Part shown: positions 1,825 through 18,143 of the stretch, one piece after another
How the letters are laid out: the number at the start of each line of letters is the position of its first letter
Numbering within the stretch: position 1 is the first letter of the stretch
Source of the DNA: a plasmid
Sequence record: NZ_CP064874.1
Strand: one strand, 5' to 3'
DNA: 64,000 nt
Made by a program: the position numbers and the translations under genes
Notes under the pieces: model-generated
Told to the model about the DNA's origin: nothing
The model's database searches: none
The model's input: only the letters and a program-made list of their open reading frames with translations

Positions 1825-1906
1825 CGCTCTCCGAGGTTGTTCGGGTGGTCGATTGAGACACTGACCGAACGTACACATAACGGCGTGCGGCTGTGGCAAC
1901 TTCCTG

Positions 1907-3592: not shown

Positions 3593-3924
3593 GCTGGCCG
3601 TACCCGACCGTCCGCGTCGATGGGACCGCGACGGTCGATGAGGAAGGGGAGAATCAGGTCTGCGCCTGTGGCAATGATTCGTGGACTCAGGACTGGCGGA
3701 GCGCCGATCGTCTTGGGCGTCTTGCCTTCGATGCTGCTGGTTCGGCCGACCCCGACGAGTTCGCGGTCTGCCCAGTGTGCGGCCGTGTGTATCCCAACGC
3801 TGCTCTGTTCCACGGCGCCGCGGCCGCGGTGGCTCGCTATGAGATCACTAGTGCCGAGTTCATTGCTGCGCTACAGCGGTATGACCACGACGCCTACGGA
3901 TCCGGCGGGTCGCTGACGAGCTGA
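3589..3924 (+). CDS. hypothetical small Cys-rich (zinc-ribbon-like) protein
   Basis: GTGA overlap with methyltransferase stop; CxC...CPVC motif; high GC3. Confidence 0.45.
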   Translation: MSWPYPTVRVDGTATVDEEGENQVCACGNDSWTQDWRSADRLGRLAFDAAGSADPDEFAVCPVCGRVYPNAALFHGAAAAVARYEITSAEFIAALQRYDHDAYGSGGSLTS

Positions 3925-3969
3925 GTCACGCGGTCGTCGTCGGCACGGGGCTGTCGGTGCGCCGGCATA

Positions 3970-4251
3970 GTGTTCGCTGTTGTGGTGCAGCACTGGTCTC
4001 CGATGTCTCAGCTGCAGGCGTCGCCGGAGCCGGGGATCTGGTACGTGTTCGACCACAGCAAGAGGATCGCGATCATCCGCCATGTCGAGATCCGCGGCCG
4101 TAGGCTGCTGCGTTCCGTGACGTTCGATCGCGATCCCGAGCGGCGAGTGTTGATCGGCTACTTCCCCGACGATGCAATGAGGCTCGCTGTCGAGTGCACC
4201 TGGTCGGAGTATGTGAGGGCGACTGGTCCACCGGTGAGCAATCGTCGATGA
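3970..4251 (+). CDS. hypothetical protein
   Basis: 93-aa ORF with coding-like GC3, no recognisable motif. Confidence 0.35.
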   Translation: MFAVVVQHWSPMSQLQASPEPGIWYVFDHSKRIAIIRHVEIRGRRLLRSVTFDRDPERRVLIGYFPDDAMRLAVECTWSEYVRATGPPVSNRR

Positions 4252-4409
4252 TCGCGTGCCACCGGGGCAAGAGAAAACGGCACCCGGCCGGAGCGTGGAA
4301 ATTGTCACATTCACCAACGATCCAACTGAGGAGGAGCCATCGCCCCGAGGGGCGGAAGGGAACCTGCTCAACAGCCGGGTGCCGCGCCTTAGTGTACCGC
4401 GCGGGGCGG

Positions 4410-4685
4410 TCAGAGCGGGGTGGATTGGAGGAGCTCGTCAGCGACTCGGTCGAGCAGCTGAGGGGTGAGCTGCTCGTGGCGTCCTGCGCGCTTTATGGCG
4501 TCGATCGTCGCGAGGATCGTGGTGTGCGCGTCCGGTGCAGAGGGGATGGTCTTCTGTGCCTGTCGGATGCGTGCGCTGAGCTCAAGGATCGCGGTCTCGT
4601 CGCGTTCATTGTTCGCGTAGCCGGCGGCGAGCTCGAGCGACTTGTGTAGCAGGCGGGTCTCGGTGGTGGTGAGCGGTGCGGTCAT
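4410..4685 (-). CDS. hypothetical protein
   Basis: 91-aa ORF, 4-bp overlap with the upstream ORF 4682..4966; followed by GC-rich hairpin 4375-4408. Confidence 0.45.
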   Translation of the reverse strand: MTAPLTTTETRLLHKSLELAAGYANNERDETAILELSARIRQAQKTIPSAPDAHTTILATIDAIKRAGRHEQLTPQLLDRVADELLQSTPL

Positions 4686-4966
4686 CGTGTCCTCGTGTTC
4701 AGGAGATCTGCGGTCAGTCGGGCGAAGCGTGTGTCGACGTCGCGCTGGTCGGGGAGATCGACGTCGGCCGCGATGGGTCGGGCGTCGTAGAAGTGGTGCC
4801 GGATGACGCGGCCCCGGTGGTCGACCAGGCCCTCACCCTCGCCCTCGATCGGCTCGAGCAGAGCGACGATGGTGACGGCGAGCTCGCGTGCTGTCGCGCG
4901 CTCCCGGATGAGGGCATGATCTCCGAGGCGCAGTGCCGGCCACGCAGTGAGCTCGGGGTCGGTCAT
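4682..4966 (-). CDS. hypothetical protein
   Basis: 94-aa ORF translationally coupled to neighbours (4-bp overlaps both sides). Confidence 0.45.
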   Translation of the reverse strand: MTDPELTAWPALRLGDHALIRERATARELAVTIVALLEPIEGEGEGLVDHRGRVIRHHFYDARPIAADVDLPDQRDVDTRFARLTADLLNTRTR

Positions 4967-5208
4967 GAGGGTGTTCCTTCCTTGCTTCTGGGGGAGGAGC
5001 GGCGTAGCCGCCGAGCGGATTTGGGGAGGGGTTCGTTGCGAGGCAGCTTCGCGAGGCGCCAGTCATCGCGGACGGCGATCGCGGCGGCGAAACAGGTCAT
5101 GAGCGTGGGGTGGTGGTGGTTGGCGCATCCGGCGCGGGTCTGACATCCGAGGTCGTAGCCCTCGGGGCTGCCGTGGATGATCTGTCGAGCGACCTCGTCG
5201 GAAAGCAT
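4963..5208 (-). CDS. small protein with HG-x3-GY-x2-GC-x4-GC-x-NH Cys/His motif (paralogue of 63227..63478)
   Basis: IHGSPEGYDLGCQTRAGCANHHHPTLMTC aligns with LHGTTAGYLAGCRSKGGCPNHGNRQLLTC of ORF 63227..63478. Confidence 0.5.
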   Translation of the reverse strand: MLSDEVARQIIHGSPEGYDLGCQTRAGCANHHHPTLMTCFAAAIAVRDDWRLAKLPRNEPLPKSARRLRRSSPRSKEGTPS

Positions 5209-5218
5209 GGCCTGGTCC

Positions 5219-5629
5219 TCAGTCGAAGCTGGCGTCGATCAGGAGGTCGAGCGCGTCGGCGAGCTCACGGAGCCTGTAGCTGCGTCGACCGGCGATGACG
5301 TGGCCGAACAGGTTGACGAAGTGCAGCTCGCGAGTGGTGGTGTCGGCGACGGCGACGGTATGGACGTCGTGAGCGTCGATGTACTGCCAGCTGATGATGT
5401 AGTTGCGGCCGGCGACGTGCGCTTGAGCCCAGCGGAAAAGCAGTGCACCGAGCGGACCATCTTCGGATGCGCGGGTCGAGTAGGGGTCGGCTGGCACGAT
5501 CGCGTCGACGGAATGGAAGCCGACAGAGGAGCGGGAGATCTCGTAGCTGTCCAGCGGGATGTCGAGGAAGAGATCGTTGTAACGGGTGCCGGTGTCATCG
5601 GTGATGACGATGTTGTTCAGAGTGCTCAT
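5219..5629 (-). CDS. hypothetical protein
   Basis: ORF 5219..5791 trimmed to internal Met MSTLNNIVITDD (start at 5629). Confidence 0.45.
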   Translation of the reverse strand: MSTLNNIVITDDTGTRYNDLFLDIPLDSYEISRSSVGFHSVDAIVPADPYSTRASEDGPLGALLFRWAQAHVAGRNYIISWQYIDAHDVHTVAVADTTTRELHFVNLFGHVIAGRRSYRLRELADALDLLIDASFD

Positions 5630-5655
5630 CGTTGTCAGTCCTCTCGGGTGGGGGG

Positions 5656-6378
5656 TCATGCGGCGCAGCTGGCGAGCTGCGCGCGGAGCGTGGAGTAGTC
5701 GGCCGGGTTGACCGTCAGCTGGTAGGCGGTGAGGACGTCGACGAAGCGCGCAGCGTAGGCGCATCCGTAGTCCGCGTTCGGGGGCATCCATTCGGAGGGG
5801 CCGCGATCGCTCTTCGACTGGTTGGTGCTGCCGTCCGTGGCCTGCAGATTGAGAGGATCGTTGGCGAAGCGCTCACGCTGGGCCTCGTCCCATTCGTCGG
5901 CGCCCTGACGCCACCCCCACGCGAGCGGCACGACATGGTCGATCTGCACGAGCTCACTCGTGCCCTGGCCGCGCTCGAAGGCGATCGTGAGCCCGGTGTA
6001 AGGGTCGTGAAGCGTTCCGGTGAGGACGACGCAGTCGTGTGTGCCGGGCTTGGTGGTGATGTTCTCGAGCGCGGCCGCGAGTGCGTCGTTGCGCTGGTCA
6101 CAGCCGTTGCGGTCGATGTCGGCCCAGCGTTGCCCGAACGCGTCACGGTCGTAGCTGTCCTGGTCGGCTGCATCGGCCACGACGAGCTGCTCGAGCTCAT
6201 CGAGGGCTGCGGCGGCGTCCGCGGAGATCTCTGCGGTAGGCACAGGCACAGGCGCGGGCGCGGTGTCGGTGAGGTCGCTGACGCCGGAGGGCTGGCTGGT
6301 GATCGCGATCGCGCCAGCGAGCAGGGCGACGACAACAGCGCCGGCGGCGGAGGCGAGGCGTGTGGTTCGGCGGTTCAT
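5656..6378 (-). CDS. secreted DUF1524 / HNH-like nuclease-domain protein
   Basis: ORF 5656..6864 trimmed to MNRRTTRLASAAGAVVVALLAGAIA (signal peptide) at 6378; C-terminal IDHVVPLAWGW ... GSTNQSKSDRGPSEW resembles GmrSD C-terminal/DUF1524 nuclease fold. Confidence 0.6.
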   Translation of the reverse strand: MNRRTTRLASAAGAVVVALLAGAIAITSQPSGVSDLTDTAPAPVPVPTAEISADAAAALDELEQLVVADAADQDSYDRDAFGQRWADIDRNGCDQRNDALAAALENITTKPGTHDCVVLTGTLHDPYTGLTIAFERGQGTSELVQIDHVVPLAWGWRQGADEWDEAQRERFANDPLNLQATDGSTNQSKSDRGPSEWMPPNADYGCAYAARFVDVLTAYQLTVNPADYSTLRAQLASCAA

Positions 6379-6389
6379 GAGTGGTCCGT

Positions 6390-6593
6390 TCAGAGGAAGA
6401 GGGCGGCGCCGAGTACGACGGCCGCGGCGACCGCGGCGACGCTGAGGAGAAGGGTGACGAGGAACTTGAGGCTGCGCCGTACCGTGCGCTCTGCGCGGCG
6501 TGCAGTGTCGACGGTGACGAGGATGCCGACGAGGCCGCCGCTGCCCAGCAGAAGGGGAGCGAAGTCGCGGGCGGTAGACAGGGCGAGATCCAT
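6390..6593 (-). CDS. small membrane protein
   Basis: 67 aa, two hydrophobic helices; RBS GGAGGAACCC; immediately downstream of motif-2 copy. Confidence 0.45.
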   Translation of the reverse strand: MDLALSTARDFAPLLLGSGGLVGILVTVDTARRAERTVRRSLKFLVTLLLSVAAVAAAVVLGAALFL

Positions 6594-6617
6594 GGGTTCC
6601 TCCGGGGTATTCGTCTA

Positions 6618-6651
6618 GGGGTATAGGTCGCAGTTCGGGGTGTTCGCGGAC
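6618..6651 (-). promoter_or_regulatory. motif-2 copy a: TGTCCGCGAAC-N16-TATACC (minus-strand reading), putative promoter
   Basis: plus strand GGGTATAGGTCGCAGTTCGGGGTGTTCGCGGACA; lies between terminator hairpin 6661-6690 and RBS of 6593 gene. Confidence 0.55.
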
Positions 6652-6660
6652 AGAGATTCT

Positions 6661-6690
6661 CGGGGGCGGGCATAGGCGAGCCCGCCCCCG
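6661..6690 (-). terminator. GC-rich hairpin after gene 6698..7573
   Basis: CGGGGGCGGG-N10-CCCGCCCCCG inverted repeat directly 3' of stop at 6698. Confidence 0.5.
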
Positions 6691-6697
6691 AGGGCTG

Positions 6698-7573
6698 TTA
6701 CGCGGCCGCGGCCTGGTCGTCGGCGCCGAGCATGGCGTCGGCGATCGCGTTGACGGCACGGAGGACGTTGCCGGCGACGCTGCGGATGAGGTCGACGTCA
6801 CCGCCGGCCCATCCTGCGACGTACCCGATCGACCACGCGGACGTGTCGAGTCCGAGGAGGCCACCGGCGCAGTACGCGACCGACTCGGCTTCGGTCTCGA
6901 TCACTCCGCGGTGCTCGCGGGTGCTGCCCTCGTCGAAGTGCAGAAGTGCGTGACCGATCTCGTGCAGGAGGGTCTTGACGCGCATGGCCGGTGCCATCTT
7001 GCTGTCGACCCGGATCTGTCGGGCCTGGCCATCGGTGTACCCGTTGAGCCCGTCCTGTGCGATGTCCTCGAGCGCGACATCCCAGCCCTGCGCGGTGATG
7101 AAGTCGGCGAGCTGGTCGAAGAGGCCTGCGACGTCGTCGCCCTCGAGGTAGATGGCCGGCTGCTCGGGGAGCGGCTCGCCATCGGTGTCGCGGACGTCGA
7201 ACACGGAGAGCACCGGGTAGATCACTCGACTGCTGGTGGACTCTTCTCCGGTGGCCTCGTCGACCTCGACGATCCGCTTGGTGGAGTAGCCGAAGATCTT
7301 GATCGACTTCGCGCCCTTGACGACGTGACGGCCGAGGGTCTCCCACTGGCGGTAGCCGAGGCAGTGGGTGCCGCCCTGCGCGAGGATGAGCATCTGGTTG
7401 GAGAACGAGCGCCGGCGGACGATGCGCGCGAAGCGCAGCCAGGCCTTCCAGTTCTCGCTCTCGGCCAGCGTGGCGACCTGTGCGGTGAGCTGCTCGTGGA
7501 GCGCCTCGGCCTGTGCGCGGCGCTCTTCCGGGGTGCGGCGGGTGGTGCCGCTGCGGCGGGTCTTGGTGGTCAT
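6698..7573 (-). CDS. ardC: ArdC-like antirestriction protein (ssDNA-binding N-domain plus zincin-like metallopeptidase HExxH)
   Basis: ORF 6698..7660 trimmed to MTTKTRRSG (RBS GGAGGA); N-terminal DUF1738-like block; LLHEIGHALLH zinc-peptidase motif. Confidence 0.7.
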   Translation of the reverse strand: MTTKTRRSGTTRRTPEERRAQAEALHEQLTAQVATLAESENWKAWLRFARIVRRRSFSNQMLILAQGGTHCLGYRQWETLGRHVVKGAKSIKIFGYSTKRIVEVDEATGEESTSSRVIYPVLSVFDVRDTDGEPLPEQPAIYLEGDDVAGLFDQLADFITAQGWDVALEDIAQDGLNGYTDGQARQIRVDSKMAPAMRVKTLLHEIGHALLHFDEGSTREHRGVIETEAESVAYCAGGLLGLDTSAWSIGYVAGWAGGDVDLIRSVAGNVLRAVNAIADAMLGADDQAAAA

Positions 7574-7599
7574 GGTGTCCTCCCTCAGAGTGGACGAGT

Positions 7600-7647
7600 A
7601 GTGAATGTGACATTCACTAGTATGAGGCATTCGATATGCCCCGTCAA
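7600..7647 (-). promoter_or_regulatory. promoter/operator copy 1: TTGACG-N17-CATACT followed by 19-bp palindrome AGTGAATGT-S-ACATTCACT
   Basis: Operator at 7600-7618, about 27 bp upstream of ATG 7573; -10 at 7619-7624, -35 at 7642-7647 (minus-strand sense). Confidence 0.7.
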
Positions 7648-7678
7648 CTCCGATTTGCACCCGCCTGCAGCGGGGGTC

Positions 7679-8632
7679 TCAGCCCGGAAGGATGTCGGTG
7701 GCGGCTTTGGGGTACGCGGTGCGCGGCAGCCCGATCGGCAGCCGGCGACGCTGGGAGCTGCTGCCAAGAGGGAAGGCGTATCGGAAGTTCCCCGGATGCC
7801 TGATCTTCGTGACATCGAGCGCGGCGAGCGCCTCGCGCAGCCAGGCTCGCGGGTCTTGCCCTGCGCGGCGGATGGGGGCGCCGAGCGAGACCAGGTGTCG
7901 CTCGGCGGCGTCGGCGCCTCGCTCCTGTCCTCTTACCTTGGACAGAGATCTCTCGGAGAGCACGAGGCCGCGGCGGGGGAGGTAGTTCAGGGTGCGTGCG
8001 GTGCTGCGGCCGAGGGCGATCGCGTTGACGCTTTGGTATATCCCGCCGATGTGGCCGGGCGAGGTCTGTTCGATGCGCTCGATTGTGGTGCCGTTGTCGA
8101 GGGTCTCGGTGATCTGTCGGCGCCGTGGCAAGGGGTCGGCGAAAGAGACGACGCCGCGGATGCCCCGGTCGTAGGCGTGGCGGAAAGCGCGTGCGAGGAA
8201 CCAGGATTCGGCGTTCGCGGGTGTGTCGGTGAGTACGAATCGGCCGAGCTCGATGCTCTGTTCGTAGGGCTCGAGCGTGCCGAAGACGGAGCTGAGGACT
8301 CCTCTGCTCATCGGGGTGGAGAAGGTGGCGACGCCGACCAGTGCCATCTCGTCGACCATGGCGCCGTTGATGGGGAAGCGGTCGTCGCGGGTGAGCAGCC
8401 CGATCGAGAAGCGTGCTGCGGGGAAGGATGCTGCGTAGTGCTCGTCGATGACGAATGCTCGCGCGGCGGCTTCCGTGATCGGGGCCACCTGGTATAGACG
8501 GGGGTCGAACCCGCCTTCGGAGATGTGGCGCCACGAATGGGCGCCGCGAGACCAACGCTGGCAGTAGTCGCTCGCGGGGGAGGAGGGCGGCTCGGCCGGC
8601 ATGAGTACCGGCCGAGCGTTCAGGGTGGGCAT
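7679..8632 (-). CDS. hypothetical protein
   Basis: ORF 7679..8701 trimmed to MPTLNAR at 8632, 5 bp after stop of upstream gene; no confident family assignment. Confidence 0.5.
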   Translation of the reverse strand: MPTLNARPVLMPAEPPSSPASDYCQRWSRGAHSWRHISEGGFDPRLYQVAPITEAAARAFVIDEHYAASFPAARFSIGLLTRDDRFPINGAMVDEMALVGVATFSTPMSRGVLSSVFGTLEPYEQSIELGRFVLTDTPANAESWFLARAFRHAYDRGIRGVVSFADPLPRRRQITETLDNGTTIERIEQTSPGHIGGIYQSVNAIALGRSTARTLNYLPRRGLVLSERSLSKVRGQERGADAAERHLVSLGAPIRRAGQDPRAWLREALAALDVTKIRHPGNFRYAFPLGSSSQRRRLPIGLPRTAYPKAATDILPG

Positions 8633-8636
8633 GAGG

Positions 8637-8960
8637 TCAGATCTGCGCAGCGATCGCGCGGAGCTGCTCGTCGACGTCGGGGGCGACGTCGATCCACTCA
8701 CCGGTCCTGGGGTGCAGCCCGACGATGAGCGCGGTGCTGAACAGCAGTGCGCTGCGGCCGTGCTCGGTCAGGTAGAGCGAGGCGAGCAGGTTCGGCTCTG
8801 TGACCTTGAGACCGGCTTCCTCGTCGACGAGCAGTGCGTGGCCGTTGGTCAGGCGGAGCTCTGCGACCCAGCCGCCGATCTCGCGCTGGTAGTCGGGCAG
8901 CTCGTCGATGCGGATGGTGTCGATCTCGCCAGCGGGGGTGATCTTGATGGCCGTTGTCAT
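8637..8960 (-). CDS. DUF3846-like protein
   Basis: 107 aa; pattern GEIDTIRIDELPDYQREIGGWVAELRL...LLVDEEAGL matches DUF3846 proteins common in actinobacterial phages/ICEs; RBS GGAGGAC. Confidence 0.5.
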   Translation of the reverse strand: MTTAIKITPAGEIDTIRIDELPDYQREIGGWVAELRLTNGHALLVDEEAGLKVTEPNLLASLYLTEHGRSALLFSTALIVGLHPRTGEWIDVAPDVDEQLRAIAAQI

Positions 8961-8985
8961 GGAGTCCTCCTCAGATCAGAACGGT

Positions 8986-9034
8986 AGTGAATGTGACATT
9001 CACTGATGGTACGCGGGCGACGTACCCTCGTCAA
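8986..9034 (-). promoter_or_regulatory. promoter/operator copy 2: TTGACG-N17-TACCAT plus palindromic operator
   Basis: Operator 8986-9004 immediately upstream of RBS/ATG 8960; -10 9006-9011; -35 9029-9034. Confidence 0.7.
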
Positions 9035-9044
9035 CCGCCGTGGA

Positions 9045-10448
9045 CTAGAGGAGTGCTGAGTCGACGCGGCAGCACTTCTGCTGCGCATAGGGGCGTTCAC
9101 TCAGCGGCATCCAACCCGGTTCCCTTCGCCGAATGAGCCGGGGATGCCCGGCTTCCCCCTCCGTGGTCATGTGGGGGCCGGCGTTGGTCCAGCAGTTCTG
9201 CGCGCGCGTCTCGCACCACAGCGCGAGCCGCGCTTCGCGGGGGAGGCAGGCACGATGTGTCCACCAGGCGCGCTTCTCGCCGTAGGGTCCGAACTGGTGG
9301 CCCTCGCTGTGCGCGATCGCGTCGTGGACGGCGCGGAAGACGTCGTTGGCGAGCATCGGCGCCCGCTCGCCCGTGGGCAGGGTGACCGTAACGCTGCGAG
9401 CCATCGGATGATCCGGCGGAAGGGCCCCCTCGCTGTGCTGCGAGACCTCGGTGCGGAAGTAGAACAGGTGCTTGTTCTCGCGGAGATCGGCCAGCATCGC
9501 GGCAGAGTCGGCGTAGGGTTGCTCGGTCTCGCCGTGCCAGGGCTCGAAGGTGTAGCCGGCTTCTGTGAGCATGTCCCACTGAGCGCCGATGTGCTGCCGC
9601 AGTGATCGGTAGGAGCGGGCGACCTGCGGGTGCGCGGGCTCGTGCGGTGCGGCCGCGTATGCCCTCGCTGCAGCGATGTCGTCGAGCTCGGTCAGTCGGG
9701 GGATCGGCGTGCGCTGTGGGAAACCGTGCGCATCGGCGTACCGCTCTCTGAGCGACTGGATCTCCTTGATCGGCTGGTGGTGACGGTAGCTGTCGTTGCC
9801 GGGCACGAAGGCAACGTGCGCTCGAGCGAAGGTGGGTTCTGTTCCGAGACGGGCGGCGATCGCGTTCACGGCGGATGCCGGCAGCGGATACTCGGCGGGT
9901 TCCGCGATCTCGAGCTTGCCGTCATAGAGCCTGCCTCCCGGTGCGCCGGCGGCGCGGAGAATGTCGAGGGTCTCCTGGACCTGCTGCTGCGAGCCGGTGC
10001 CGGCGGCGAAGCTGTAGACCCGGTCGGGGCCGTCAGCGTCGAAGTACCCGGCCATGATGCTGTCCTGCTCATACCGCCCCGCCAGCTCGCCGGCCCAGTC
10101 GGTGACCTGCTCGAAGCTGTCCGCGTGGACGATGTAGGCGCCTGCAGGCTCCGACGTGCCCTCCCAGAGCCCGTCCGCGTGCTGCAGCTCGGAGATCTCG
10201 ATCCCGTGACGTTCCGCGGCCGCGCGCAGGGTGTCTTCGTACTCGATCCACTCGTCGGTGTCCCAATAGCTGGGGCGCGAGCTCATCCGCATCAGCTCGC
10301 CCGAGACCGGCCGGAACGGGGTCGCGCCGATGAAGGCCTCAAGCTGCTTCTCGGCGTTCCGCTCGCGCTTCTCGGCGCGGCGACGCCGCTGCCCTTCGGC
10401 CGTCGACGACGGGCACCGCCGCCCTCCGTGGTCGATGTCGTCGCACAT
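9045..10448 (-). CDS. hypothetical protein (467 aa)
   Basis: ORF 9045..10580 trimmed to MCDDIDHGGRRC at 10448 (RBS GGGAGAGG); no recognisable domain. Confidence 0.5.
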   Translation of the reverse strand: MCDDIDHGGRRCPSSTAEGQRRRRAEKRERNAEKQLEAFIGATPFRPVSGELMRMSSRPSYWDTDEWIEYEDTLRAAAERHGIEISELQHADGLWEGTSEPAGAYIVHADSFEQVTDWAGELAGRYEQDSIMAGYFDADGPDRVYSFAAGTGSQQQVQETLDILRAAGAPGGRLYDGKLEIAEPAEYPLPASAVNAIAARLGTEPTFARAHVAFVPGNDSYRHHQPIKEIQSLRERYADAHGFPQRTPIPRLTELDDIAAARAYAAAPHEPAHPQVARSYRSLRQHIGAQWDMLTEAGYTFEPWHGETEQPYADSAAMLADLRENKHLFYFRTEVSQHSEGALPPDHPMARSVTVTLPTGERAPMLANDVFRAVHDAIAHSEGHQFGPYGEKRAWWTHRACLPREARLALWCETRAQNCWTNAGPHMTTEGEAGHPRLIRRREPGWMPLSERPYAQQKCCRVDSALL

Positions 10449-10469
10449 GGCCTCTCCCGTTCGTCTGCT

Positions 10470-10503
10470 GGGTATAGGCCGGGGTTGGGGGTGTTCGCGG
10501 ACA
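10470..10503 (-). promoter_or_regulatory. motif-2 copy b
   Basis: plus strand GGGTATAGGCCGGGGTTGGGGGTGTTCGCGGACA, preceded (in transcript sense) by hairpin 10510-10537. Confidence 0.55.
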
Positions 10504-10558
10504 GAAATCGGGGCCCCGCCGGTCGGCAGGGCCCCGATGAGGGCGGCATGGTCAAACG

Positions 10559-10687
10559 TCAGCCGTTGAGCTCCTCCCACACCTGGTAGGCGCGGTGAAA
10601 CTCCGGGCTGTCATCGTCGCCGTCACGCACGAGCTGGTCGAGGTACTCGTCGAGCTCAGCCTGGGAGAGCTGGCGGGGATCCTTCAT
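10559..10687 (-). CDS. small acidic hypothetical protein (42 aa)
   Basis: MKDPRQLSQAELDEYLDQLV... in-frame tail of ORF 10559..11065; 4-bp overlap with upstream gene end. Confidence 0.3.
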   Translation of the reverse strand: MKDPRQLSQAELDEYLDQLVRDGDDDSPEFHRAYQVWEELNG

Positions 10688-10962
10688 CCTTCGGCTCCCG
10701 CCTCGGCAGGCGGGCAACTGCACCGTGCACGCGGCCGCGAACCGTTCCAGTTCCCGACGTAGAACAGCGCGCACGGCCATTCGTGCTCGCCGCGGCGCCG
10801 CAGCCTGGGGACGGTCACCGTGAGCTCGCTGCCCAGGCTCAGCGCGTCCATGATGTCGTCCGCGATGTAGCCGGCCTCCTCGTCCGCCTCGTCCGTGTGC
10901 TGCTGGATCGTGCGCACGATCGTTGCGCGCACGTCCAGCGTGACGGTCGGCGATGCCTCGTT
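10684..10962 (-). CDS. hypothetical protein
   Basis: ORF 10684..11268 trimmed to MNEASPTVTL at 10962 (ATGA overlap with upstream membrane protein gene). Confidence 0.4.
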   Translation of the reverse strand, partial: NEASPTVTLDVRATIVRTIQQHTDEADEEAGYIADDIMDALSLGSELTVTVPRLRRRGEHEWPCALFYVGNWNGSRPRARCSCPPAEAGAEG

Positions 10963-11318
10963 CATCGGGTGTCCTCGTCGGGGTCCACACGCTGGATCGC
11001 CTCGTGCAGGCGGGCCAGTCGGTCCTCTCGCACGATGATGACGAAGACCACCGCAATGCCGGCAAGAGGCAGGAGCACGATCGGGGCGGGGACCACGATC
11101 ACCACGCCGACAGCGAGCAGCACGATCGGCAGGATCACCCTCAGCGTTGCGCGGCGGTGCTGACCGAGCTCGTTCCTGATGCGATCCTTGATGACCCCGT
11201 CCTGCTGTGCGAAGGCGGTGGCCGGGTCCGAGGAACGCAACATGCTCCGGATTGCGCGAGTTGTCCACTCGCTCAGCGTGCGCTGATGCCGATCCCTACT
11301 ACTCTCACGCCCGGTCAT
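10962..11318 (-). CDS. membrane protein, hypothetical
   Basis: 118 aa with two long hydrophobic helices (ILPIVLLAVGVVIVVPAPIVLLPLAGIAVVFVII). Confidence 0.5.
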   Translation of the reverse strand: MTGRESSRDRHQRTLSEWTTRAIRSMLRSSDPATAFAQQDGVIKDRIRNELGQHRRATLRVILPIVLLAVGVVIVVPAPIVLLPLAGIAVVFVIIVREDRLARLHEAIQRVDPDEDTR

Positions 11319-11806
11319 CGCGTGTACTCGCTCGGGGACGGGATCGGCAGGTCAGGATCGCGGATCTCGTACTGCCGGTCCTCCACGTAGGCCGCGTACT
11401 CGTCTGCGAAGTCGTATGCCTCGGCCTCGCTGTGCCCTTCCTGGCGCGCATGATCGAACGCGCTCCGCCACGGCTGACCGGTCGAATCGAGCGGCGGGTA
11501 CAGGCGGTCGATCAGCACCTGATTCGCAGCGTCGTCGATCCTTCCGCGAGCCTCGGCGTCGGCGATCGCTCTCGCAGTCGCATGTGTGCCGTCTCGCAGC
11601 CGCGACAGATCACTCGAAGAGGGCACCACCCGCGCATAGGTGCAGTCGTCCCACCGGCAGTAGGTGGTCGTCTCCTCTGGCGTGAGCGGGCGGGGAGTGA
11701 CGCTCACCAGCGCGGCGCCGCGTCCGCACACGGGGCATCGTCGAGCCTCCGCGCTGCGGACACCAACGCCGCGGCGATGGGCTGTGTTGTTCCGGCGCTC
11801 GGTCAT
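11315..11806 (-). CDS. hypothetical zinc-ribbon protein
   Basis: CPVCG ... C..DDC motif; 4-bp overlaps with flanking genes. Confidence 0.5.
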   Translation of the reverse strand: MTERRNNTAHRRGVGVRSAEARRCPVCGRGAALVSVTPRPLTPEETTTYCRWDDCTYARVVPSSSDLSRLRDGTHATARAIADAEARGRIDDAANQVLIDRLYPPLDSTGQPWRSAFDHARQEGHSEAEAYDFADEYAAYVEDRQYEIRDPDLPIPSPSEYTR

Positions 11807-12024
11807 CGCTCGCTCCCGCTCTCGTTGGGCGGGTTGGTGATGATGAACCCTGTGCCGGCGTCGGGCTGGTCCTGGCGCAGTCCGACGATCTCGGTGTCGG
11901 TCGCGTCGGTGTCGTTGAGGGTCTGAGCGAGCAGGTCGGCGTACTCGTCCGCGGTGAGTGCCTGGACCGCGGCGGCGTCGGTGACGTCGACGGGCTTGCC
12001 GTTGACGTGGAAGATGCGGGTCAT
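11803..12024 (-). CDS. hypothetical protein (73 aa)
   Basis: ORF 11803..12588 trimmed to MTRIFHVNGK with RBS GGAGAG. Confidence 0.4.
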   Translation of the reverse strand: MTRIFHVNGKPVDVTDAAAVQALTADEYADLLAQTLNDTDATDTEIVGLRQDQPDAGTGFIITNPPNESGSER

Positions 12025-12071
12025 GGGGTTCTCTCCTGCTGATGCGTCGTGGTGTCCATCCTCGTCGTGGG

Positions 12072-12371
12072 TCAGCGGAGGTCGAGCTCGACGCTGTCGG
12101 CCTCGAGGTCGGGGATGGTCTGGGCAGGGTGGCTGAACGTGACAGCCGGGCCGTGGACGATTACACGGTCGCCGCGGTGGGTCGTCAGCCGGAGCATCTC
12201 GGCGAGGATCCCGTTGGCGTGGACGTTGTATGAGCCGGCGTCGGTCTCGACGCGGAACCCTACGCGCGCCTGACGGTCGGTGAGTCGGCGGACGAGGGTG
12301 AGCGGTGTGCGGACGGTTCCTGCGATGGTGACCGCGGTGCCCGTGGGGGCTGCGGCCTGGGTGATGGTCAT
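12072..12371 (-). CDS. hypothetical protein, possibly OB-fold/SSB-like
   Basis: MTITQAAAPTGTAVTIAGTVRTPLTLVRRLTDRQARVGFRVETDAGSYNVHANGILAEMLRL loosely resembles actinobacterial SSB N-terminal OB fold; RBS AGGAGACAGG. Confidence 0.4.
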   Translation of the reverse strand: MTITQAAAPTGTAVTIAGTVRTPLTLVRRLTDRQARVGFRVETDAGSYNVHANGILAEMLRLTTHRGDRVIVHGPAVTFSHPAQTIPDLEADSVELDLR

Positions 12372-12392
12372 GGCCTGTCTCCTCAATCAAAT

Positions 12393-12445
12393 AGTGAATG
12401 TGACATTCACTGACTATACGCCTGCGAGTCTGGTAGGGGAACCCC
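12393..12445 (-). promoter_or_regulatory. promoter/operator copy 3: -10 TATAGT plus palindromic operator
   Basis: Operator 12393-12411 is 21 bp upstream of ATG 12371; -10 at 12413-12418. Confidence 0.65.
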
Positions 12446-12477
12446 CGTGCCTGACTGTGCCGCAGGCCCTTCTTGCT

Positions 12478-12511
12478 GGGTATAGGCCGGTCTTGGCGCT
12501 GTTCGCGGACA
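12478..12511 (-). promoter_or_regulatory. motif-2 copy c (here upstream of operator copy 3)
   Basis: plus strand GGGTATAGGCCGGTCTTGGCGCTGTTCGCGGACA. Confidence 0.5.
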
Positions 12512-12535
12512 CCCGAGTTGCGAAGATCGGTGAGG

Positions 12536-12778
12536 TTAGTCGTCGATGCTGCTGTCGGGTTCGTCACACGCGCCACTGTTGATGGCATCGACGCCGGCTT
12601 TCGTGAGCACCCAGCCGGGTTCGACCCATGAGTAGCGCTCGATCAGACCGCGCCTGCGGAGAGACTGGATGGTGCCACCGGGAATCCCCAGGCCTGTCGT
12701 ATCGAGGTAGCTGGCGCCACCGGAGGGGGACCGGCCATCGGCGATCATCCGCATGGTGACCCGCTGCGACCAGTTCAA
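12536..12778 (-). CDS. putative winged-helix DNA-binding protein
   Basis: GGTIQSLRRRGLIERYSWVEPGWVLTKAGVDAI resembles a recognition helix plus wing; candidate regulator. Confidence 0.35.
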   Translation of the reverse strand: MNWSQRVTMRMIADGRSPSGGASYLDTTGLGIPGGTIQSLRRRGLIERYSWVEPGWVLTKAGVDAINSGACDEPDSSIDD

Positions 12779-12814
12779 CGGCGGGGCCTTCTTGCGGCGG
12801 TTGAGCTGTCGATG

Positions 12815-14092
12815 TCAGGCGGAACGTGCGAGCTGCGCAGCGGAGGCGGTCGGCTGCAGCGCGAGGAGCCGCTGCGCCTTCGCTGCTTCGATCTCGCCCG
12901 GCAGCTCTCCCTTACGAGCGCCGGAGCGGCCGTAGAGAAGGACTTTCACGCCGGTCTTGGAGGCCTGCGCTCGGTCGGCGATCTCGAGGATGGTCATGCC
13001 GGAGGCCATCAGTTGTCGGACGTGCCGGCGAACGGGGTCAGCGGGCACGCGCGGGGCCTGCGGGGCGATGCCGGCTTCCCGCCGCCGGCGTCGCTCTTCG
13101 GTCAGCGATGCGTCGGCGCAGGAGATCTCGGCAGGGCATTGATCTCGGTCCTTGCAGCCGAGCTGGTAGCCGTAGGCGGTCCCGTGGTGTTCGGCCGGGA
13201 TGCTCTGTTCCTTCCGGTTTGCCATCCACTGCCGGTGATACTCGCGGCCCGCCTCGATGCACTCCGGTCGATCGCAGCCACGCGCCCGGCAGGCGTTGGT
13301 GCCGTGCGGCTGCAGCTGCCGCGGTCGGGAGACGCGAGGGGCCCGCGGGGTCTGCGGCCGCGGCATCCGCGGCCTGGCCGGCGGTGCCGGGCGATCATGC
13401 TTCGCGAGCTCGTCGACTGCTGCCTGATGCCTGGCGGTGGCGTCCTGCAGAGCACGCTCGATCACGCCGCCGACCGATAGGCCGCTTCCGGCGGCGATGG
13501 TGGCCGTCTTGAGCGTCTCGACCGCGGAACGCAGCTGGACGCGCAGATCCCGGTGGTCGCTGCGCCACTGTGCGAGCTCGTCGACGTGACGATCCAGCGC
13601 TGCTTCGTAGCCGTCGACCGTCTCCGCGAACGTGCTGGCACGCTCGACGGGGAGCGTCTCGGCCGCGAGGCGGGCCTTGTCGATCCACTGATAGCCAGGA
13701 TGCGTGCGCGTCCTCAGCAACGTCGGTCGCGGGGTCGCGATCCTCAGCGGCGCCGTCTTCGGCGGGCGGGCGGGCCGTGCTGTCGGTGTGCGCTTCGAGG
13801 CCTGCTTGGGTCGGCGGGGCTGCGTGGCTTCGGCCGCGGCCCGGCGCTCTTCTCGAGCGGCGATCTTGTCACGCTGCCGGGACTGGTCGCGTGCGGCTGC
13901 GTCGCGCTCGAGGATCTCCGCAAGGGGCGTGCCGGCGTCGATGAGCTTCGCGAAGGAGAAGTCGCCGGCATAGCGGGTGTGGATGGTGCGGCAGGGGATG
14001 AGCGCGGGGCACGCTGCAGTGCGGCATCCGCGGCGGTACCCGTCCGGGGTGCCGTGCGGGAAGCTGTCGTCGAGCAGGTCGAGGGTGGACAT
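12815..14092 (-). CDS. multi-motif protein: three copies of HGT-x2-GY-x2-GC-x5-C Cys/His motif plus C-terminal HTH
   Basis: ORF 12815..14293 trimmed to MSTLDLLDDSFPHGTPDGYRRGCRTAAC (start 14092); further copies HGTNACRARGCDRPEC and HGTAYGYQLGCKDRDQCPAE; C-terminal GMTILEIADRAQASKTGVKVLL HTH-like. Confidence 0.55.
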   Translation of the reverse strand: MSTLDLLDDSFPHGTPDGYRRGCRTAACPALIPCRTIHTRYAGDFSFAKLIDAGTPLAEILERDAAARDQSRQRDKIAAREERRAAAEATQPRRPKQASKRTPTARPARPPKTAPLRIATPRPTLLRTRTHPGYQWIDKARLAAETLPVERASTFAETVDGYEAALDRHVDELAQWRSDHRDLRVQLRSAVETLKTATIAAGSGLSVGGVIERALQDATARHQAAVDELAKHDRPAPPARPRMPRPQTPRAPRVSRPRQLQPHGTNACRARGCDRPECIEAGREYHRQWMANRKEQSIPAEHHGTAYGYQLGCKDRDQCPAEISCADASLTEERRRRREAGIAPQAPRVPADPVRRHVRQLMASGMTILEIADRAQASKTGVKVLLYGRSGARKGELPGEIEAAKAQRLLALQPTASAAQLARSA

Positions 14093-14103
14093 CACGTTCG
14101 GCC

Positions 14104-14565
14104 TCAGTAGCGCAGGAGCTTCGCGGTGACGAGCGACAACAGCGCCGCCCGTTGCGGAGAGTTGAGGCGGGAGAAGTGCGCGCCCAGGGTGTCCAGTGCT
14201 GCGGTGAACTCGGCAGGCAGCCCGTCGAGATCCCGCTTGACGCGCCGCTCGTTCGCGTCGCGCTGCGCCTCGGCCTGATCGGTCACACGCCACTCGTCGG
14301 TGGCCGCGCGGTCGGCATAGGCGCCCGTGATCCGTGGCGCATGCAGCCCGCGGGTGTAGAGCGAGTTCGGCTCGTCGATCGGGCGAGTGATCGTGATGAT
14401 CGCGCCGACCGGCGCCGACGTGTACGGCTTGTACGAGCCGAGCTCCTTGTCGGAGATCTCGCCGTCGACGAGCGTGCGGTACCAGTGCGCGAGCTTGCCA
14501 TTGCCCGCCTGCCTGCGCCCGACGTAGACGACATCCTCAGTGACGGTCTCTGCCGATTCGCTCAT
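14104..14565 (-). CDS. hypothetical protein
   Basis: ORF 14104..14580 trimmed to MSESAETV, RBS GAGGAG; operator copy 4 about 30 bp upstream. Confidence 0.5.
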   Translation of the reverse strand: MSESAETVTEDVVYVGRRQAGNGKLAHWYRTLVDGEISDKELGSYKPYTSAPVGAIITITRPIDEPNSLYTRGLHAPRITGAYADRAATDEWRVTDQAEAQRDANERRVKRDLDGLPAEFTAALDTLGAHFSRLNSPQRAALLSLVTAKLLRY

Positions 14566-14593
14566 GGGCGATCTCCTCAATCAATCAGAAAGT

Positions 14594-14642
14594 AGTGAAT
14601 GTGACATTCACTGATACTAGAGAGGTTGCAGCGTTCTCGCAA
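14594..14642 (-). promoter_or_regulatory. promoter/operator copy 4: TTGCGA-N16-TAGTAT plus palindromic operator
   Basis: Operator 14594-14612; -10 14615-14620; -35 14637-14642. Confidence 0.7.
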
Positions 14643-14826
14643 CCGTCGTCGTCGTCGTCGCCGAAAGTCGAGAGCGCTGCCTGTCGGCGGGCACGGTGCG
14701 CATGGGCTCATCACGAGGCGCTTCGATCTCGAAGCCGCACGCGCCGCAGCTGTGCAGTCCGACGCCATCGACGTCGTCGGATGGGATGTACATGGTGGTG
14801 GGCTCTTCGCACATCAGGCAGCGCAT
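14617..14826 (-). CDS. small zinc-ribbon protein (69 aa)
   Basis: MRCLMCEEPTTMYIP...HSCGACGFE; in-frame tail of ORF 14617..15129. Confidence 0.4.
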   Translation of the reverse strand: MRCLMCEEPTTMYIPSDDVDGVGLHSCGACGFEIEAPRDEPMRTVPADRQRSRLSATTTTTVARTLQPL

Positions 14827-14846
14827 GGTGATCTCCGATCGTGTGG

Positions 14847-15311
14847 TCAGGCGGTAGCCGCCGGGGTGATCTGCTCGACGGTGGCTGAGTAGCCGCGGTG
14901 GGAACCCCAGGCGGCGGCGATGCGGTCGGCGACGTCGCGGTCTTCGCCGAGGTAGGGGCGGTATCGCTTGCCTCGCGGGTCGGTGATGACGACCTGGACG
15001 ACGCCGGAGGGCTCGCGCACGGTGACTCGGGCAGCAGGGATTGGGTGGGCGTGGACGCGGCCGGCGATGATGAAGGTCGGGTACAGATCGCGTGCGAGCT
15101 CGGGGGAGCGGAACACGTCGTGGACCCATGCCGTGATGGCGATCGCGCCGGCAGGACTGAACCCGATGAGGCGGGCGGGGAGCTGCTCGAGCCCGGAGCG
15201 GACGAAGTAGTGCTCGTCGACGAGTATCGGCGCCGGCGGATGCAGAGACCGCTCGTCGTGGGCGGGGTAGATCGTCAGGCTGGTGCGGCTGTTCATGAGG
15301 CGCTCGTTCAT
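14847..15311 (-). CDS. hypothetical protein
   Basis: ORF 14847..15515 trimmed to MNERLMNSRTSL (ATGA overlap with upstream gene). Confidence 0.45.
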   Translation of the reverse strand: MNERLMNSRTSLTIYPAHDERSLHPPAPILVDEHYFVRSGLEQLPARLIGFSPAGAIAITAWVHDVFRSPELARDLYPTFIIAGRVHAHPIPAARVTVREPSGVVQVVITDPRGKRYRPYLGEDRDVADRIAAAWGSHRGYSATVEQITPAATA

Positions 15312-16078
15312 GCGGTGCGGCGGATGCCTACGGCGATGATGTGCGCCTTGGTGGGACGGGAGTAGAAGCCGAAGCTGTCGTCGTCGTCCGAGGCGGAGAC
15401 GGTTGCGGTGAATGCGACGACGTCGCCGCGCGTCGCGGAGGAGATCTCGGAGGGCTTGGTGCCCCACACGCGCCAGCCTTCGCCCTGGACGAGGATCTTG
15501 ACGGTGATGCCCCACTGGGTGTCGGTGGTCTTGGTTGCGAGGATCTCACCCTGGATGAGGGTGCGTCCCGTGGGGACGGGGCGGCGCGCTGCCAGCTCGC
15601 GCTCGAGCTGCTCGAGCAGCTCGTGGGCAGTGCGGACCTCATCGGCGTCGAGGGTGCCGGTGGAGTCCTCGAGCGAGTCGAGGAGGTAGCCGATCTTCTC
15701 GCGCAGCGGGTTGCCCTCCCGGATGCTCAGATGAGCTTCGGTGAGCTGGTCGCGCAGGCCGGGGTGCTCGGCCTCGAAGGCAGCGCGACGGGCGGTGATC
15801 GCGCGCGTCGTGTCGATGTGCTCGGCGTGCGCCTTCGCGTGGGCGCGGGCGGTGGCGCGAGCGCTGCTGACGAGCCGGCTGCGAGTGCCGGTGCCGTGGC
15901 AGTCGAAGCAGATCGGGCGACCGTGGCCATCGGTGAAGTGGGTGGGCCCGGTGTACAGGCCGGTGCCGATGCACTTGCCGCAGGTGTCGGTGATCCGCTC
16001 GGAGCCCTTGCGGCCGGGGAAGGGGTCGACGTAGAAGTCGTGCCAGTCTGCCGGTGCGGTGGTGTCGATGCTGTCCAT
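15308..16078 (-). CDS. hypothetical protein with N-terminal zinc finger (CGKC...CFDC)
   Basis: 256 aa, RBS GGAGGA; preceded by motif-2 copy d. Confidence 0.5.
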   Translation of the reverse strand: MDSIDTTAPADWHDFYVDPFPGRKGSERITDTCGKCIGTGLYTGPTHFTDGHGRPICFDCHGTGTRSRLVSSARATARAHAKAHAEHIDTTRAITARRAAFEAEHPGLRDQLTEAHLSIREGNPLREKIGYLLDSLEDSTGTLDADEVRTAHELLEQLERELAARRPVPTGRTLIQGEILATKTTDTQWGITVKILVQGEGWRVWGTKPSEISSATRGDVVAFTATVSASDDDDSFGFYSRPTKAHIIAVGIRRTA

Positions 16079-16098
16079 GGGATCCTCCGATGCGTCTG

Positions 16099-16133
16099 TG
16101 GGTATAGGCCGCGGATCGTTCTCTTCGCGGACA
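16099..16133 (-). promoter_or_regulatory. motif-2 copy d
   Basis: plus strand GGGTATAGGCCGCGGATCGTTCTCTTCGCGGACA; hairpin 16147-16179 just upstream in transcript sense. Confidence 0.55.
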
Positions 16134-16342
16134 TGAAGGGGAAGGTGCGGGGGCGGCTATGTCACGGAGCCGCCCCCGCGGCGGCGACCTGGTTGGGAGG
16201 ACGGCGGTCGCCGTGAGGGACGGAGCGAAGAGCGCGGCGAGCGCTCGTCAGGCTGCGGTGTGGCGCCTGTCCCTGGGAGGGGAACGGCGTTGCGCGGTTC
16301 CCCTGGCTGTGGGTCTGTGGGGTCTCCCTCTACTCAGTTAGT

Positions 16343-16389
16343 AGTGAATGTGACATTCACAGAGTAGGGGGTTTCTGCGTGCGGGTCAA
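16343..16389 (-). promoter_or_regulatory. promoter/operator copy 5: TTGACC-N17-TACTCT plus operator; no ORF for about 190 nt downstream
   Basis: Operator 16343-16361 (18/19 match), -10 16361-16366, -35 16384-16389; transcript would run through a structured leader to hairpin 16147-16179. Confidence 0.6.
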
Positions 16390-16417
16390 GCGTCGATCTT
16401 GTAGGGATCTTTCTGAA

Positions 16418-16469
16418 ATGTCCATTTCGCAGTTGAAATGTCCACGCGATGTCCATATGGACATTTCGG
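16418..16469. repeat. about 50-bp direct repeat copy 1 containing TGTCCA iterons and palindrome TGTCCATATGGACA
   Basis: ATGTCCATTTCGCAG...ATGTCCACGCGATGTCCATATGGACATTTCGG; second copy at 18093-18143 with 3 mismatches. Confidence 0.7.
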
Positions 16470-18092: not shown

Positions 18093-18143
18093 TGTCCATT
18101 TCGCAGGGGAGATGTCTACGCGATGTCCATATGGACCTTTCGG
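18093..18143. repeat. about 50-bp direct repeat copy 2
   Basis: TTGTCCATTTCGCAGGGGAGATGTCTACGCGATGTCCATATGGACCTTTCGG. Confidence 0.7.

Follow-up and report, generated by a model that had tools for sequence, protein, structure and literature searches.

Which function does a dense run of small co-directional genes serve on an actinobacterial plasmid? The gene block in question lies in a 64,000-nt stretch of the plasmid record NZ_CP064874.1, and this whole stretch is referred to here as the window. A preliminary description made from the sequence had read the block as a module of an integrative or mobilizable element, with a gene content resembling conjugative leading regions or phage early regions. 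We arrive at a different answer, to which we assign a probability of about 70%. The block is the distal 12 kb of a co-directional establishment and anti-restriction array that belongs to a pYJNG-type conjugative-plasmid backbone of Micrococcales and would be controlled by a repressor and tied to conjugation. This array survives here as a 14.5-kb backbone fragment within a mosaic plasmid rich in insertion sequences (IS).

A backbone fragment with repeated promoter motifs

The window has a GC content of about 67%, and raw lists of open reading frames are noisy for this reason. The gene map was made with a self-trained codon-usage model, which was refined on the gene calls of related contigs and checked by script. 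The codon model places 22 genes (g1 to g22, Table 1) between 4410 and 16078 with 92% of the DNA coding. All 22 lie on the minus strand, and a single coding strand is one of the marks of leading regions. Literal ATGA stop/start overlaps were found at five junctions (g22/g21, g13/g12, g12/g11, g3/g2, and g2/g1). Hence, the twenty-odd co-directional and ATGA-coupled genes described before were recovered.

A megablast search against plasmids returned one close relative, pYJNG of Microbacterium sp. YJN-G (148.6 kb), which is syntenic and matches with 93% cover and 86% identity. This plasmid encodes a MobF relaxase, an FtsK/SpoIIIE-like coupling protein, a VirB4-type type IV secretion system (T4SS), and Tad pili. 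In a local blastn comparison, no other pYJNG backbone was found in the rest of the window. The left edge of the homology falls inside an MmeI-type gene, and from 16400 onwards the sequence matches plasmid B of Microbacterium sp. No. 7 at 99.7% identity. The block thus stands on conjugative-plasmid DNA and not in a chromosomal housekeeping context, which agrees with the preliminary description.

The integrative element proposed there (an integrative and mobilizable or integrative and conjugative element) would make the block the cargo of a unit that integrates through the adjacent tyrosine recombinase. This recombinase is located 2.6 kb from the block, and another integrase (43773-44822) as well as many IS elements occur in the window. 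The pYJNG homology, however, runs through the left flank and breaks inside the MmeI gene, with the recombinase beyond the breakpoint, and at least five other contigs carry an intact MmeI gene and no recombinase. The right edge is a junction with DNA of another plasmid. No tRNA gene was found in the window, and no att-like direct repeats of at least 11 nt flank the block. Because tRNA genes, Rfam families, and att-like edge repeats are missing and the DNA is continuous with the backbone in pYJNG and in five further contigs, the block is taken as a fragment of plasmid backbone and not as a self-contained integrative element, which we consider quite improbable. The boundary comparison suggested earlier yielded neither att repeats, a tRNA gene, nor an integrative unit, but it did place the limits of the fragment at 1883 and 16399.

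Two repeated promoter classes had been noticed before, and both were confirmed. Class 1 consists of TTGAC(G/C)-N17-TAnnnT and, directly behind it, the 19-bp palindrome AGTGAATGTcACATTCACT. Five copies are present, four of them perfect, against an expectation of 0.00 in 100 shuffles, and a generic promoter consensus scan also picked two of the five sites. Class 2 consists of TGTCCGCGAA-N15-CCTATACCC, with four perfect copies and none expected. Its 3' box ends about 25 nt ahead of a start codon, and GC-rich hairpins that resemble the terminator of the upstream unit are located ahead of three of the four copies. The copies of both classes are intergenic and upstream of minus-strand genes, and with them the block falls into about seven transcription units (g22-g20, g19-g17, g16-g11, g10, g9-g8, g7, and g6-g1). 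Both motifs are under purifying selection, with 170 of 171 motif positions identical between the window and pYJNG as compared with 73% of the remaining intergenic positions.

By its sequence, class 1 appears to be a canonical sigma-70-type promoter whose -10 element abuts the palindrome, while class 2 would be a non-canonical conserved box. As the class 1 palindrome begins directly after the -10 hexamer, it should cover the transcription start. A role as an RNA hairpin is judged unlikely, since transcription from the neighbouring -10 would start within the left arm. We also considered class 2 as an antisense SigF-type promoter (GGGTAT, plus strand) and rejected this, as the conserved box stretches over to the opposite side, and the sequence taken for a -35 is just the reverse complement of the ribosome-binding site.

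The same signals extend over pYJNG. A scan of the whole plasmid found 16 copies of the class 1 core, and the copies that were checked precede a small minus-strand gene or operon by about 20-26 nt. Their genes form about 42 kb of co-directional small-gene arrays, broken by a catabolic island, among them a DUF3560 operon, arrays containing DUF4192, DUF6573, and SRAP, and an operon that encodes a GntR-family regulator. Nine copies of the class 2 box are present in pYJNG. Outside the module, the box is found 45-54 nt ahead of the gene for the FtsK/SpoIIIE-type coupling protein, of a T4SS operon ("conjugal transfer protein," large ATPase, M23 peptidase), and of a small Tad-pilus cluster gene. Another copy stands farther off, 580 nt ahead of a giant CHC2-primase gene. 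The shared regulation noted for the block genes therefore holds, and in pYJNG it reaches the conjugation genes.

A more distant array is present on Microbacterium sp. No. 7 plasmid A (58-72% identity), with genes for DprA, DUF4192, DUF3846-Mom, and HNH proteins. This array uses a distinct 19-bp palindrome, TGTGTATGTCAGATACACA, of which ten copies were found in 22 kb (none expected) at equivalent positions, spanning 963-10386 of the stretch analysed. A class 2-like box is kept ahead of the HNH gene. The operator copies (5 in the window, 16 of the core in pYJNG, and 10 of the variant in plasmid A) are located about 20-40 nt upstream of start codons. The operator thus co-diverges with the plasmid lineage, as a plasmid-encoded repressor predicts. 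The conservation of class 2 between the lineages suggests a shared and possibly host-encoded factor. Candidates for the repressor are the GntR-family gene and a second gene of the same operator-headed pYJNG operon; Pfam gave weak helix-turn-helix (HTH) hints for the latter, and relaxed Pfam scans of the candidates gave nothing significant.

A structured leader of about 205 nt separates the class 1 promoter of g22 from its class 2 promoter. RNA folding gave -99 kcal/mol (z = -5.4), made up of several short hairpins. With 92% identity, the leader is the best-conserved intergenic stretch relative to pYJNG, where its counterpart is found at about 30100-30308 of the stretch analysed. It can also be recognised in plasmid A (7796-8044 of that stretch), with an invariant terminal GC hairpin (11 bp) and four compensatory pairs, a covariation that is thin given three distinct sequences. 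Neither the leader nor any other part of the window matched Rfam, and a contig scan with the conserved leader pattern gave no matches. Candidate roles for the leader are those of a small RNA, of an attenuator or antitermination site, or of a single-stranded DNA (ssDNA) element.

Proteins encoded by the array

The profile searches and structure predictions recommended earlier were carried out: the block proteins were compared with Pfam, PHROGs, and NCBIfam, and models were built for g10 and g22. Three annotation errors aside, the preliminary observation stands, and the counter-defence type of content was borne out by four proteins in particular.

g8: This 317-aa protein next to ardC had been listed as lacking a recognisable family but belongs to the Mom family. 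It matches Pfam Mom (PF25680) with 64.4 bits at a cut-off of 27.1 and PHROG 1384 ("Mom-like DNA modification protein") with 3.4e-25, and its database relatives bear the name "Mom family adenine methylcarbamoylation protein." A profile built from 35 homologues matches the crystal structure of phage Mu Mom (8BV8) with E = 4.9e-4; this was the only useful result of the PDB profile searches, which gave noise for g10, g16, and g22, and direct PDB sequence searches with g8, g10, and g22 returned nothing useful. Within the 35 homologues, H65/Y66 and R131 are invariant and S143 is nearly so. Allowing for the offset of 9 residues in the 8BV8 chain numbering, they align with H58/Y59, R111, and S124, residues that are essential in Mu Mom. 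A C-terminal YPK is common to both proteins, and the Mu dimerisation residue W48 is not conserved in g8. As R151, likewise essential in Mu, lies outside the aligned block, its match to the invariant R170 of g8 is only a guess.

Mom transfers glycine from Gly-tRNA(Gly) to adenine N6 in double-stranded DNA (dsDNA), an on-base isomerisation follows, and the product protects from restriction; the chemistry of Mu Mom was solved only in 2026 (PMC13219725). Like the phage enzyme (PDB 8BV8; PMC13219725, PMC7261163), g8 lies above the Pfam Mom threshold and keeps the key residues and YPK, and its expression likewise appears from the promoter layout to be tightly controlled. It differs by its length (317 against 231 aa), by a longer insertion after the GNAT core, and by the loss of W48. 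It is also plasmid-borne, and its gene is predicted to be co-transcribed with a DUF3846 gene instead of com.

Relatives of g8 are detectable on 99 plasmids, and 65 of these matches cover at least 80% of the protein. The hosts include Streptomyces (46), sphingomonads, and Variovorax. In all 40 plasmid records listed, the gene is annotated as hypothetical or not at all. The plasmid homologues are found in similar arrays, often beside genes for orphan methyltransferases, DprA, ParB-like, DUF3560, and PAPS-reductase proteins. In Leifsonia, 2.6 kb separate the end of a Mom-containing array from mobF, which follows on the same strand; this would suit a leading region if the origin of transfer (oriT) lies between the array and mobF. 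The literature searched holds no discussion of Mom on conjugative plasmids and treats it as a phage enzyme.

These counts bear on a further reading, in which the plasmid would have captured a prophage or the early region of a phage, and the block is what remains of it. Phage relatives do exist for Mom, g22, the C-terminus of g18, and g10. Megablast, however, found no nucleotide match among 50,697 phage records, and structural, lysis, and packaging genes are absent from the block. The phage matches to g8 number eight and are weaker and partial, as against the 99 plasmids, and synteny is kept across plasmids with MobF and a T4SS. A phage origin is thus barely credible, and the earlier likening to a phage early region is not supported.

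g7: The ArdC-like protein recognised before was confirmed by matches to ArdC-N (PF08401, 32.8 bits, cut-off 22.6) and to the M78-type protease family (PF06114, 26.6 bits, cut-off 22) and by the HEIGH motif in its sequence. ArdC counters restriction and is required in the recipient cell (PMC7213743).

g22: This protein had also been described as having no family. It belongs to a large, uncharacterised one with 2974 representatives at 50% clustering and is represented in five PHROGs. The AlphaFold model (predicted local distance difference test, pLDDT, 95) has a double CxxCxGxG zinc ribbon, helical hairpins, and a C-terminal oligonucleotide/oligosaccharide-binding (OB) fold of the nucleic acid-binding type. 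On the basis of this model, g22 is a probable ssDNA-binding protein. It gave no match to Pfam SSB and so does not belong to the bacterial single-stranded DNA-binding protein (SSB) family by sequence, and the PDB profile search returned weak DnaJ zinc-finger matches only.

An SSB-like OB-fold protein had been announced for the block, and two proteins were considered for it. For the 99-aa g16, which resembles an SSB by eye, hhalign gave a probability of 3.7% against Mycobacterium tuberculosis SSB and the PDB profile search found no SSB, so that the label is not supported. The OB fold is present in the model of g22, which makes g22 the best candidate.

g10: The 467-aa protein had been placed correctly with its start at 10448, and its lack of a family is to be corrected, as its fold resembles domains of phage polyvalent proteins. 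Its structure model (pLDDT 89.7) matches internal segments of large phage polyvalent proteins in a Foldseek search of BFVD (E 3e-22 to 1e-10), with 22-31% identity over about 250-480 columns. The matched proteins are annotated as ART-PolyVal, LPD, NAT_SF, and RelA/SpoT. Phage S-adenosylmethionine (SAM) lyases ranked top in Foldseek, with weak scores, for the N-terminal ferredoxin-like domain; none was found by profile sequence search, so a SAM lyase domain is only a lead from the model. No Pfam LPD match was obtained for g10 at E <= 0.01, and a Pfam match was seen in one of its 73 homologue clusters (PF23780).

All source-named members of these clusters come from Micrococcales. In Oerskovia, the gene for the g10 homologue comes immediately after a T4SS operon of the VirB4-type/M23 kind; in Paenarthrobacter it follows Tad-pilus genes, and in Glutamicibacter its neighbours are MmeI, GmrSD_C, UmuDC-like, and RepA genes. 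The exact g10 protein is indexed in 436 blocks of a public assembly collection, including TARA and other marine or ocean metagenomes, and the NCBI assembly GCA_040702645.1 carries g10 with the same array variant. This wide indexing reflects either a very widespread plasmid or strain or a recurrent contaminant.

Other proteins: The DUF3846 protein (g9) was corroborated by Pfam. The same applies to the DUF1524/HNH nuclease g5, with its hydrophobic N-terminus, and to its small membrane neighbour g6. The several zinc-ribbon or Cys-rich proteins mentioned before are found again in g22, g20, g18, and g3. Residues 329-418 of g18 match PHROG 1590 (5e-12). A Cys motif, G-x-P/A-x-GY-x2-GC-x3-5-C, occurs once in g3 (4963-5208) and three times in g18, where two copies start with HGT; it matches no family and is probably a small zinc-binding DNA-binding module. 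The NCBIfam scan gave nothing above its cut-off.

Gene content varies between relatives. Other genes stand in the place of g14 and g13 in pYJNG, and g17 is probably what is left of a 146-aa gene that has lost about 630 bp as compared with pYJNG.

Proposed role and competing readings

In the proposed mechanism, a dimeric repressor encoded by the plasmid outside the window would bind the palindrome over the transcription start and block RNA polymerase. The array would then be silent in cells in which the plasmid is established. Its genes would be switched on together with those for transfer, or for a short time in a recipient that the plasmid has just entered and that is still without repressor (zygotic induction). 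Such a logic is known from the backbones of IncW and IncP plasmids and from the establishment genes of pLS20 (PMC6294495, PMC8708921).

Once expressed, the zinc-ribbon/OB protein g22 and ArdC-N would coat the incoming ssDNA, and the ArdC protease would counter restriction. The Mom-family enzyme would modify adenines of plasmid dsDNA against cutting, a step that could take place before transfer while the DNA is in the donor, as with Mu, or once the new duplex has been completed. g10 and the family-less genes could add further counter-defence or establishment activities, and the exported nuclease and the membrane proteins may serve donor-side or surface functions. Polyvalent proteins have been read as conflict effectors of phages and conjugative elements (PMC5512222).

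The strongest competitor is a donor-side accessory or maintenance module (transfer factors, exclusion, a nuclease for extracellular DNA, replication helpers) that is co-regulated with conjugation and not mainly directed at defence. Class 2 boxes are common to T4SS, coupling-protein, and Tad-cluster genes, with the copy ahead of the primase gene in addition, and g10 homologues follow T4SS and Tad operons. The block also encodes a nuclease predicted to be exported and membrane proteins. A donor-side role of g8 is plausible because the Mu enzyme modifies dsDNA that is still inside the producing cell (PMC13219725). ArdC, however, is needed in the recipient (PMC7213743), and ArdC-N, OB-fold, and polyvalent-type domains are typical of proteins acting on incoming DNA (PMC5512222). 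Gene content also differs among close relatives, as in accessory counter-defence islands. We therefore regard a mainly donor-side module as unlikely.

Several observations weigh against an establishment and anti-restriction array. An exported HNH nuclease does not obviously fit intracellular counter-defence. In pYJNG, the module is 16-28 kb away from mobF, and in the window, it is detached from any T4SS, the only relaxase being in an unrelated and recently shared block. MOB-suite types these plasmids as non-mobilizable, although mobF is annotated. A leading region in the strict sense adjoins oriT on the side that is the first to enter the recipient, and the array can be called a candidate for one at most. 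No Frpo/ssi-type ssDNA promoter was identified in the array, and its promoters resemble dsDNA sigma-70-type promoters with an operator. The block proteins gave no match to ArdA, KlcA, PsiB, or Pfam SSB, and 13 of the 22 match no family in Pfam, PHROGs, NCBIfam, or a relaxed Pfam search of the small proteins. Neither of the two repressor candidates of pYJNG is present in the window, where the GntR gene has no homologue.

A broader proposal goes beyond the array itself and is, in our view, possible but on the doubtful side. Actinobacterial conjugative plasmids, and by homology about 100 (Streptomyces, sphingomonads, Burkholderiales), would escape restriction by Mom-type tRNA-dependent adenine hypermodification, a means of escape so far reported from phages only, within an operator-switched establishment regulon. 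Several of the 13 family-less genes together with g10 could then encode new counter-defence proteins, and the leader of about 205 nt could gate expression.

Mosaic surroundings and relation to known systems

The coordinates of the array and of the flanking features are collected in Table 1.

Table 1 Features of the gene block and its flanks in the window
Feature	Position	Strand	Description
pYJNG-type backbone fragment	1883-16399		blastn 86-88% identity; nowhere else in window; both ends abrupt
Tyrosine recombinase	412-1824	-	wholly in non-pYJNG DNA left of the 1883 breakpoint, at most 60 bp from it
Truncated MmeI-type (type IIG) restriction-modification gene	1907-3592	+	convergent with the module; only methyltransferase, target-recognition, and C-terminal domains left
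Class 1 promoter + operator (predicted)	16343-16391	-	TTGACC-N17-TACTCT, operator with 1 mismatch; heads the array
Structured leader (predicted), about 205 nt	16139-16342	-	between class 1 and class 2 promoters of g22; ends in a 12-bp GC hairpin
Class 2 promoter-like box	16100-16133	-	upstream of g22
g22	15308-16078	-	256 aa; two DnaJ-type CxxCxGxG zinc-ribbon motifs, helical hairpins, C-terminal RPA/SSB-like OB fold (model)
g21	14847-15311	-	154 aa; no function assigned; ATGA-coupled to g22
g20	14617-14826	-	69 aa; CxxC...CxxC zinc ribbon; 3' end holds the next class 1 promoter
Class 1 promoter + operator (predicted)	14594-14642	-	TTGCGA-N17-TAGTAT + palindrome
g19	14104-14565	-	153 aa; without family
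g18	12815-14092	-	425 aa, very basic; three Cys motifs; C-terminal HTH-like region
g17	12536-12778	-	80 aa; TTG start
Tandem class 2 (12478-12511) + class 1 (12393-12411)	12393-12511	-	motif match
g16	12072-12371	-	99 aa; narrow family
g15 to g11	10559-12024	-	73, 138, 93 (membrane), 93, and 42 aa; without family
Class 2 promoter-like box	10470-10503	-	GC hairpin ahead
g10	9045-10448	-	467 aa; polyvalent-protein-like fold (model)
Class 1 promoter + operator (predicted)	8986-9034	-	TTGACG-N17-TACCAT + palindrome
g9	8637-8960	-	DUF3846 protein; Pfam 38.6 bits
g8	7679-8632	-	317 aa; Mom-family GNAT (adenine N6 hypermodification enzyme family)
Class 1 promoter + operator (predicted)	7600-7647	-	TTGACG-N17-CATACT + palindrome
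g7	6698-7573	-	ArdC-like; ArdC-N + HExxH (HEIGH) metalloprotease
Class 2 promoter-like box	6619-6652	-	GC hairpin ahead
g6	6390-6593	-	67-aa membrane protein; adjoins g5
g5	5656-6378	-	GmrSD_C/DUF1524 HNH nuclease; Pfam 70 bits; predicted N-terminal hydrophobic export/anchor segment
g4 to g1	4410-5629	-	136, 81, 94, and 91 aa; without family; g3/g2/g1 ATGA-coupled

At the 3' end of the array, positions 4300-4345 (plus strand) hold a degenerate inverted class 1 operator half-site and a ribosome-binding site, followed by ATC in place of ATG. By its sequence, this appears to be the relic of an oppositely oriented promoter and gene start.

The MmeI-type gene at the left edge is a fragment. Pfam recognises MmeI_Mtase, MmeI_TRD, and MmeI_C from profile position 36, and PADLOC matches REase_MTase_IIG at positions 377-909 of 912. 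The N-terminal nuclease and helicase-like domains are missing, while the gene is intact (928-934 aa) in pYJNG and five other contigs. From the domains left, the fragment could act as an orphan methyltransferase. PADLOC had hits only to this flanking fragment and to none of the eight module proteins scanned, and the block was accordingly discarded as a candidate defence system. A 137-aa open reading frame (2-415) without Pfam match overlaps the end of the tyrosine recombinase.

Beyond the right edge, 51-bp direct repeats with TGGACAT iteron-like and palindromic character (16419-16469 and 18093-18143) are 88-90% identical in cross-matches with plasmid B. They flank a 1.7-kb unit encoding proteins of 208 aa (plus strand) and 98 aa (minus strand) that is shared with plasmid B at 99.7%.

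In the rest of the window, which is a patchwork, IS elements (IS256, IS3, ISL3, IS5, and IS481) lie among toxin-antitoxin pairs, genes for hydrolases, resistance, and transport, and a MobF relaxase block. Pieces of it match plasmids of Rhodococcus, Glutamicibacter, Gordonia, and Microbacterium at 99.6-100% identity. An IS3-family element is present twice with identical gene layout (20060-21462 and 56396-57798), and two ISL3-family transposase genes (32085-33098 and 53116-54225) differ in called length (337 and 369 aa). The stretch at about 22400-31100 is 99.8-99.9% identical to Rhodococcus plasmids and encodes alpha/beta hydrolases, an IclR fragment, a ParE/antitoxin pair (26132-26682), a 1156-aa MobF/TrwC relaxase, and TetR; this degree of identity indicates very recent exchange between genera. 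An AbiEii/AbiEi type IV toxin-antitoxin (abortive-infection) pair is located at 60480-62196.

Among known systems, the backbone network of the IncW plasmid R388 has many promoters that share operators of plasmid repressors, which leads to a burst of expression on entry. The array resembles it in its shared operators at many backbone promoters. The operator itself is unrelated, and the array, besides being much larger, also encodes a Mom-family enzyme and domains of the polyvalent type. R388 ardC (PMC7213743) likewise encodes ArdC-N with an HExxH protease on a MOBF-type plasmid.

The leading-region islands of conjugative plasmids (Samuel & Burstein, Nature 2024, PMC11541004) are similar in lying on one strand, in being plasmid-borne and linked to conjugation, and in mixing anti-restriction, ssDNA-binding, and DNA-modification genes with many unknowns. 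This likeness is one of content and strand. The array differs by its dsDNA-type promoters with a repressor operator instead of Frpo/ssi ssDNA promoters, by its actinobacterial host, and by the absence of a match to ArdA, KlcA, PsiB, or an anti-CRISPR. The terms "Mom," "DUF3846," and "ArdC" are absent from the main text of that paper.

The establishment genes of the pLS20 family (PMC6294495, PMC8708921) are also reported to form an ardC-containing operon with dedicated regulation on a Gram-positive conjugative plasmid. Two modes of regulation are announced in the title of PMC8708921. There, the host is a Firmicute, the regulatory DNA is unrelated, and one long operon takes the place of the several short units, each with its promoter, that are found here.

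With the polyvalent proteins (Iyer, Burroughs, Anand, de Souza & Aravind 2017, PMC5512222), the array has in common ArdC-N with a metalloprotease, the fold of g10, and a T4SS-type element. Here, the domains are encoded in separate small genes and not in one giant polypeptide.

The array is thus an actinobacterial example added to the known class of plasmid establishment and anti-defence arrays. Of most interest are the plasmid-borne Mom, the two-signal regulon shared with the transfer machinery, and the co-regulated unknown genes. Work on such regions has dealt almost exclusively with Proteobacteria and a few Firmicutes, and a clearly delimited actinobacterial case is now at hand. Its code is readable, with two promoter classes, one of them common to the transfer machinery, and with operators that co-diverge, so the repressor and the regulon are directly testable. 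As plasmids with catabolic and resistance cargo more than 99% identical occur among Microbacterium, Rhodococcus, Gordonia, and Glutamicibacter, the crossing of restriction barriers is relevant to these bacteria. The array places a Mom-family hypermodification enzyme beside ardC on plasmids, and its co-regulated unknown genes provide a short list of candidates for new counter-defence functions.

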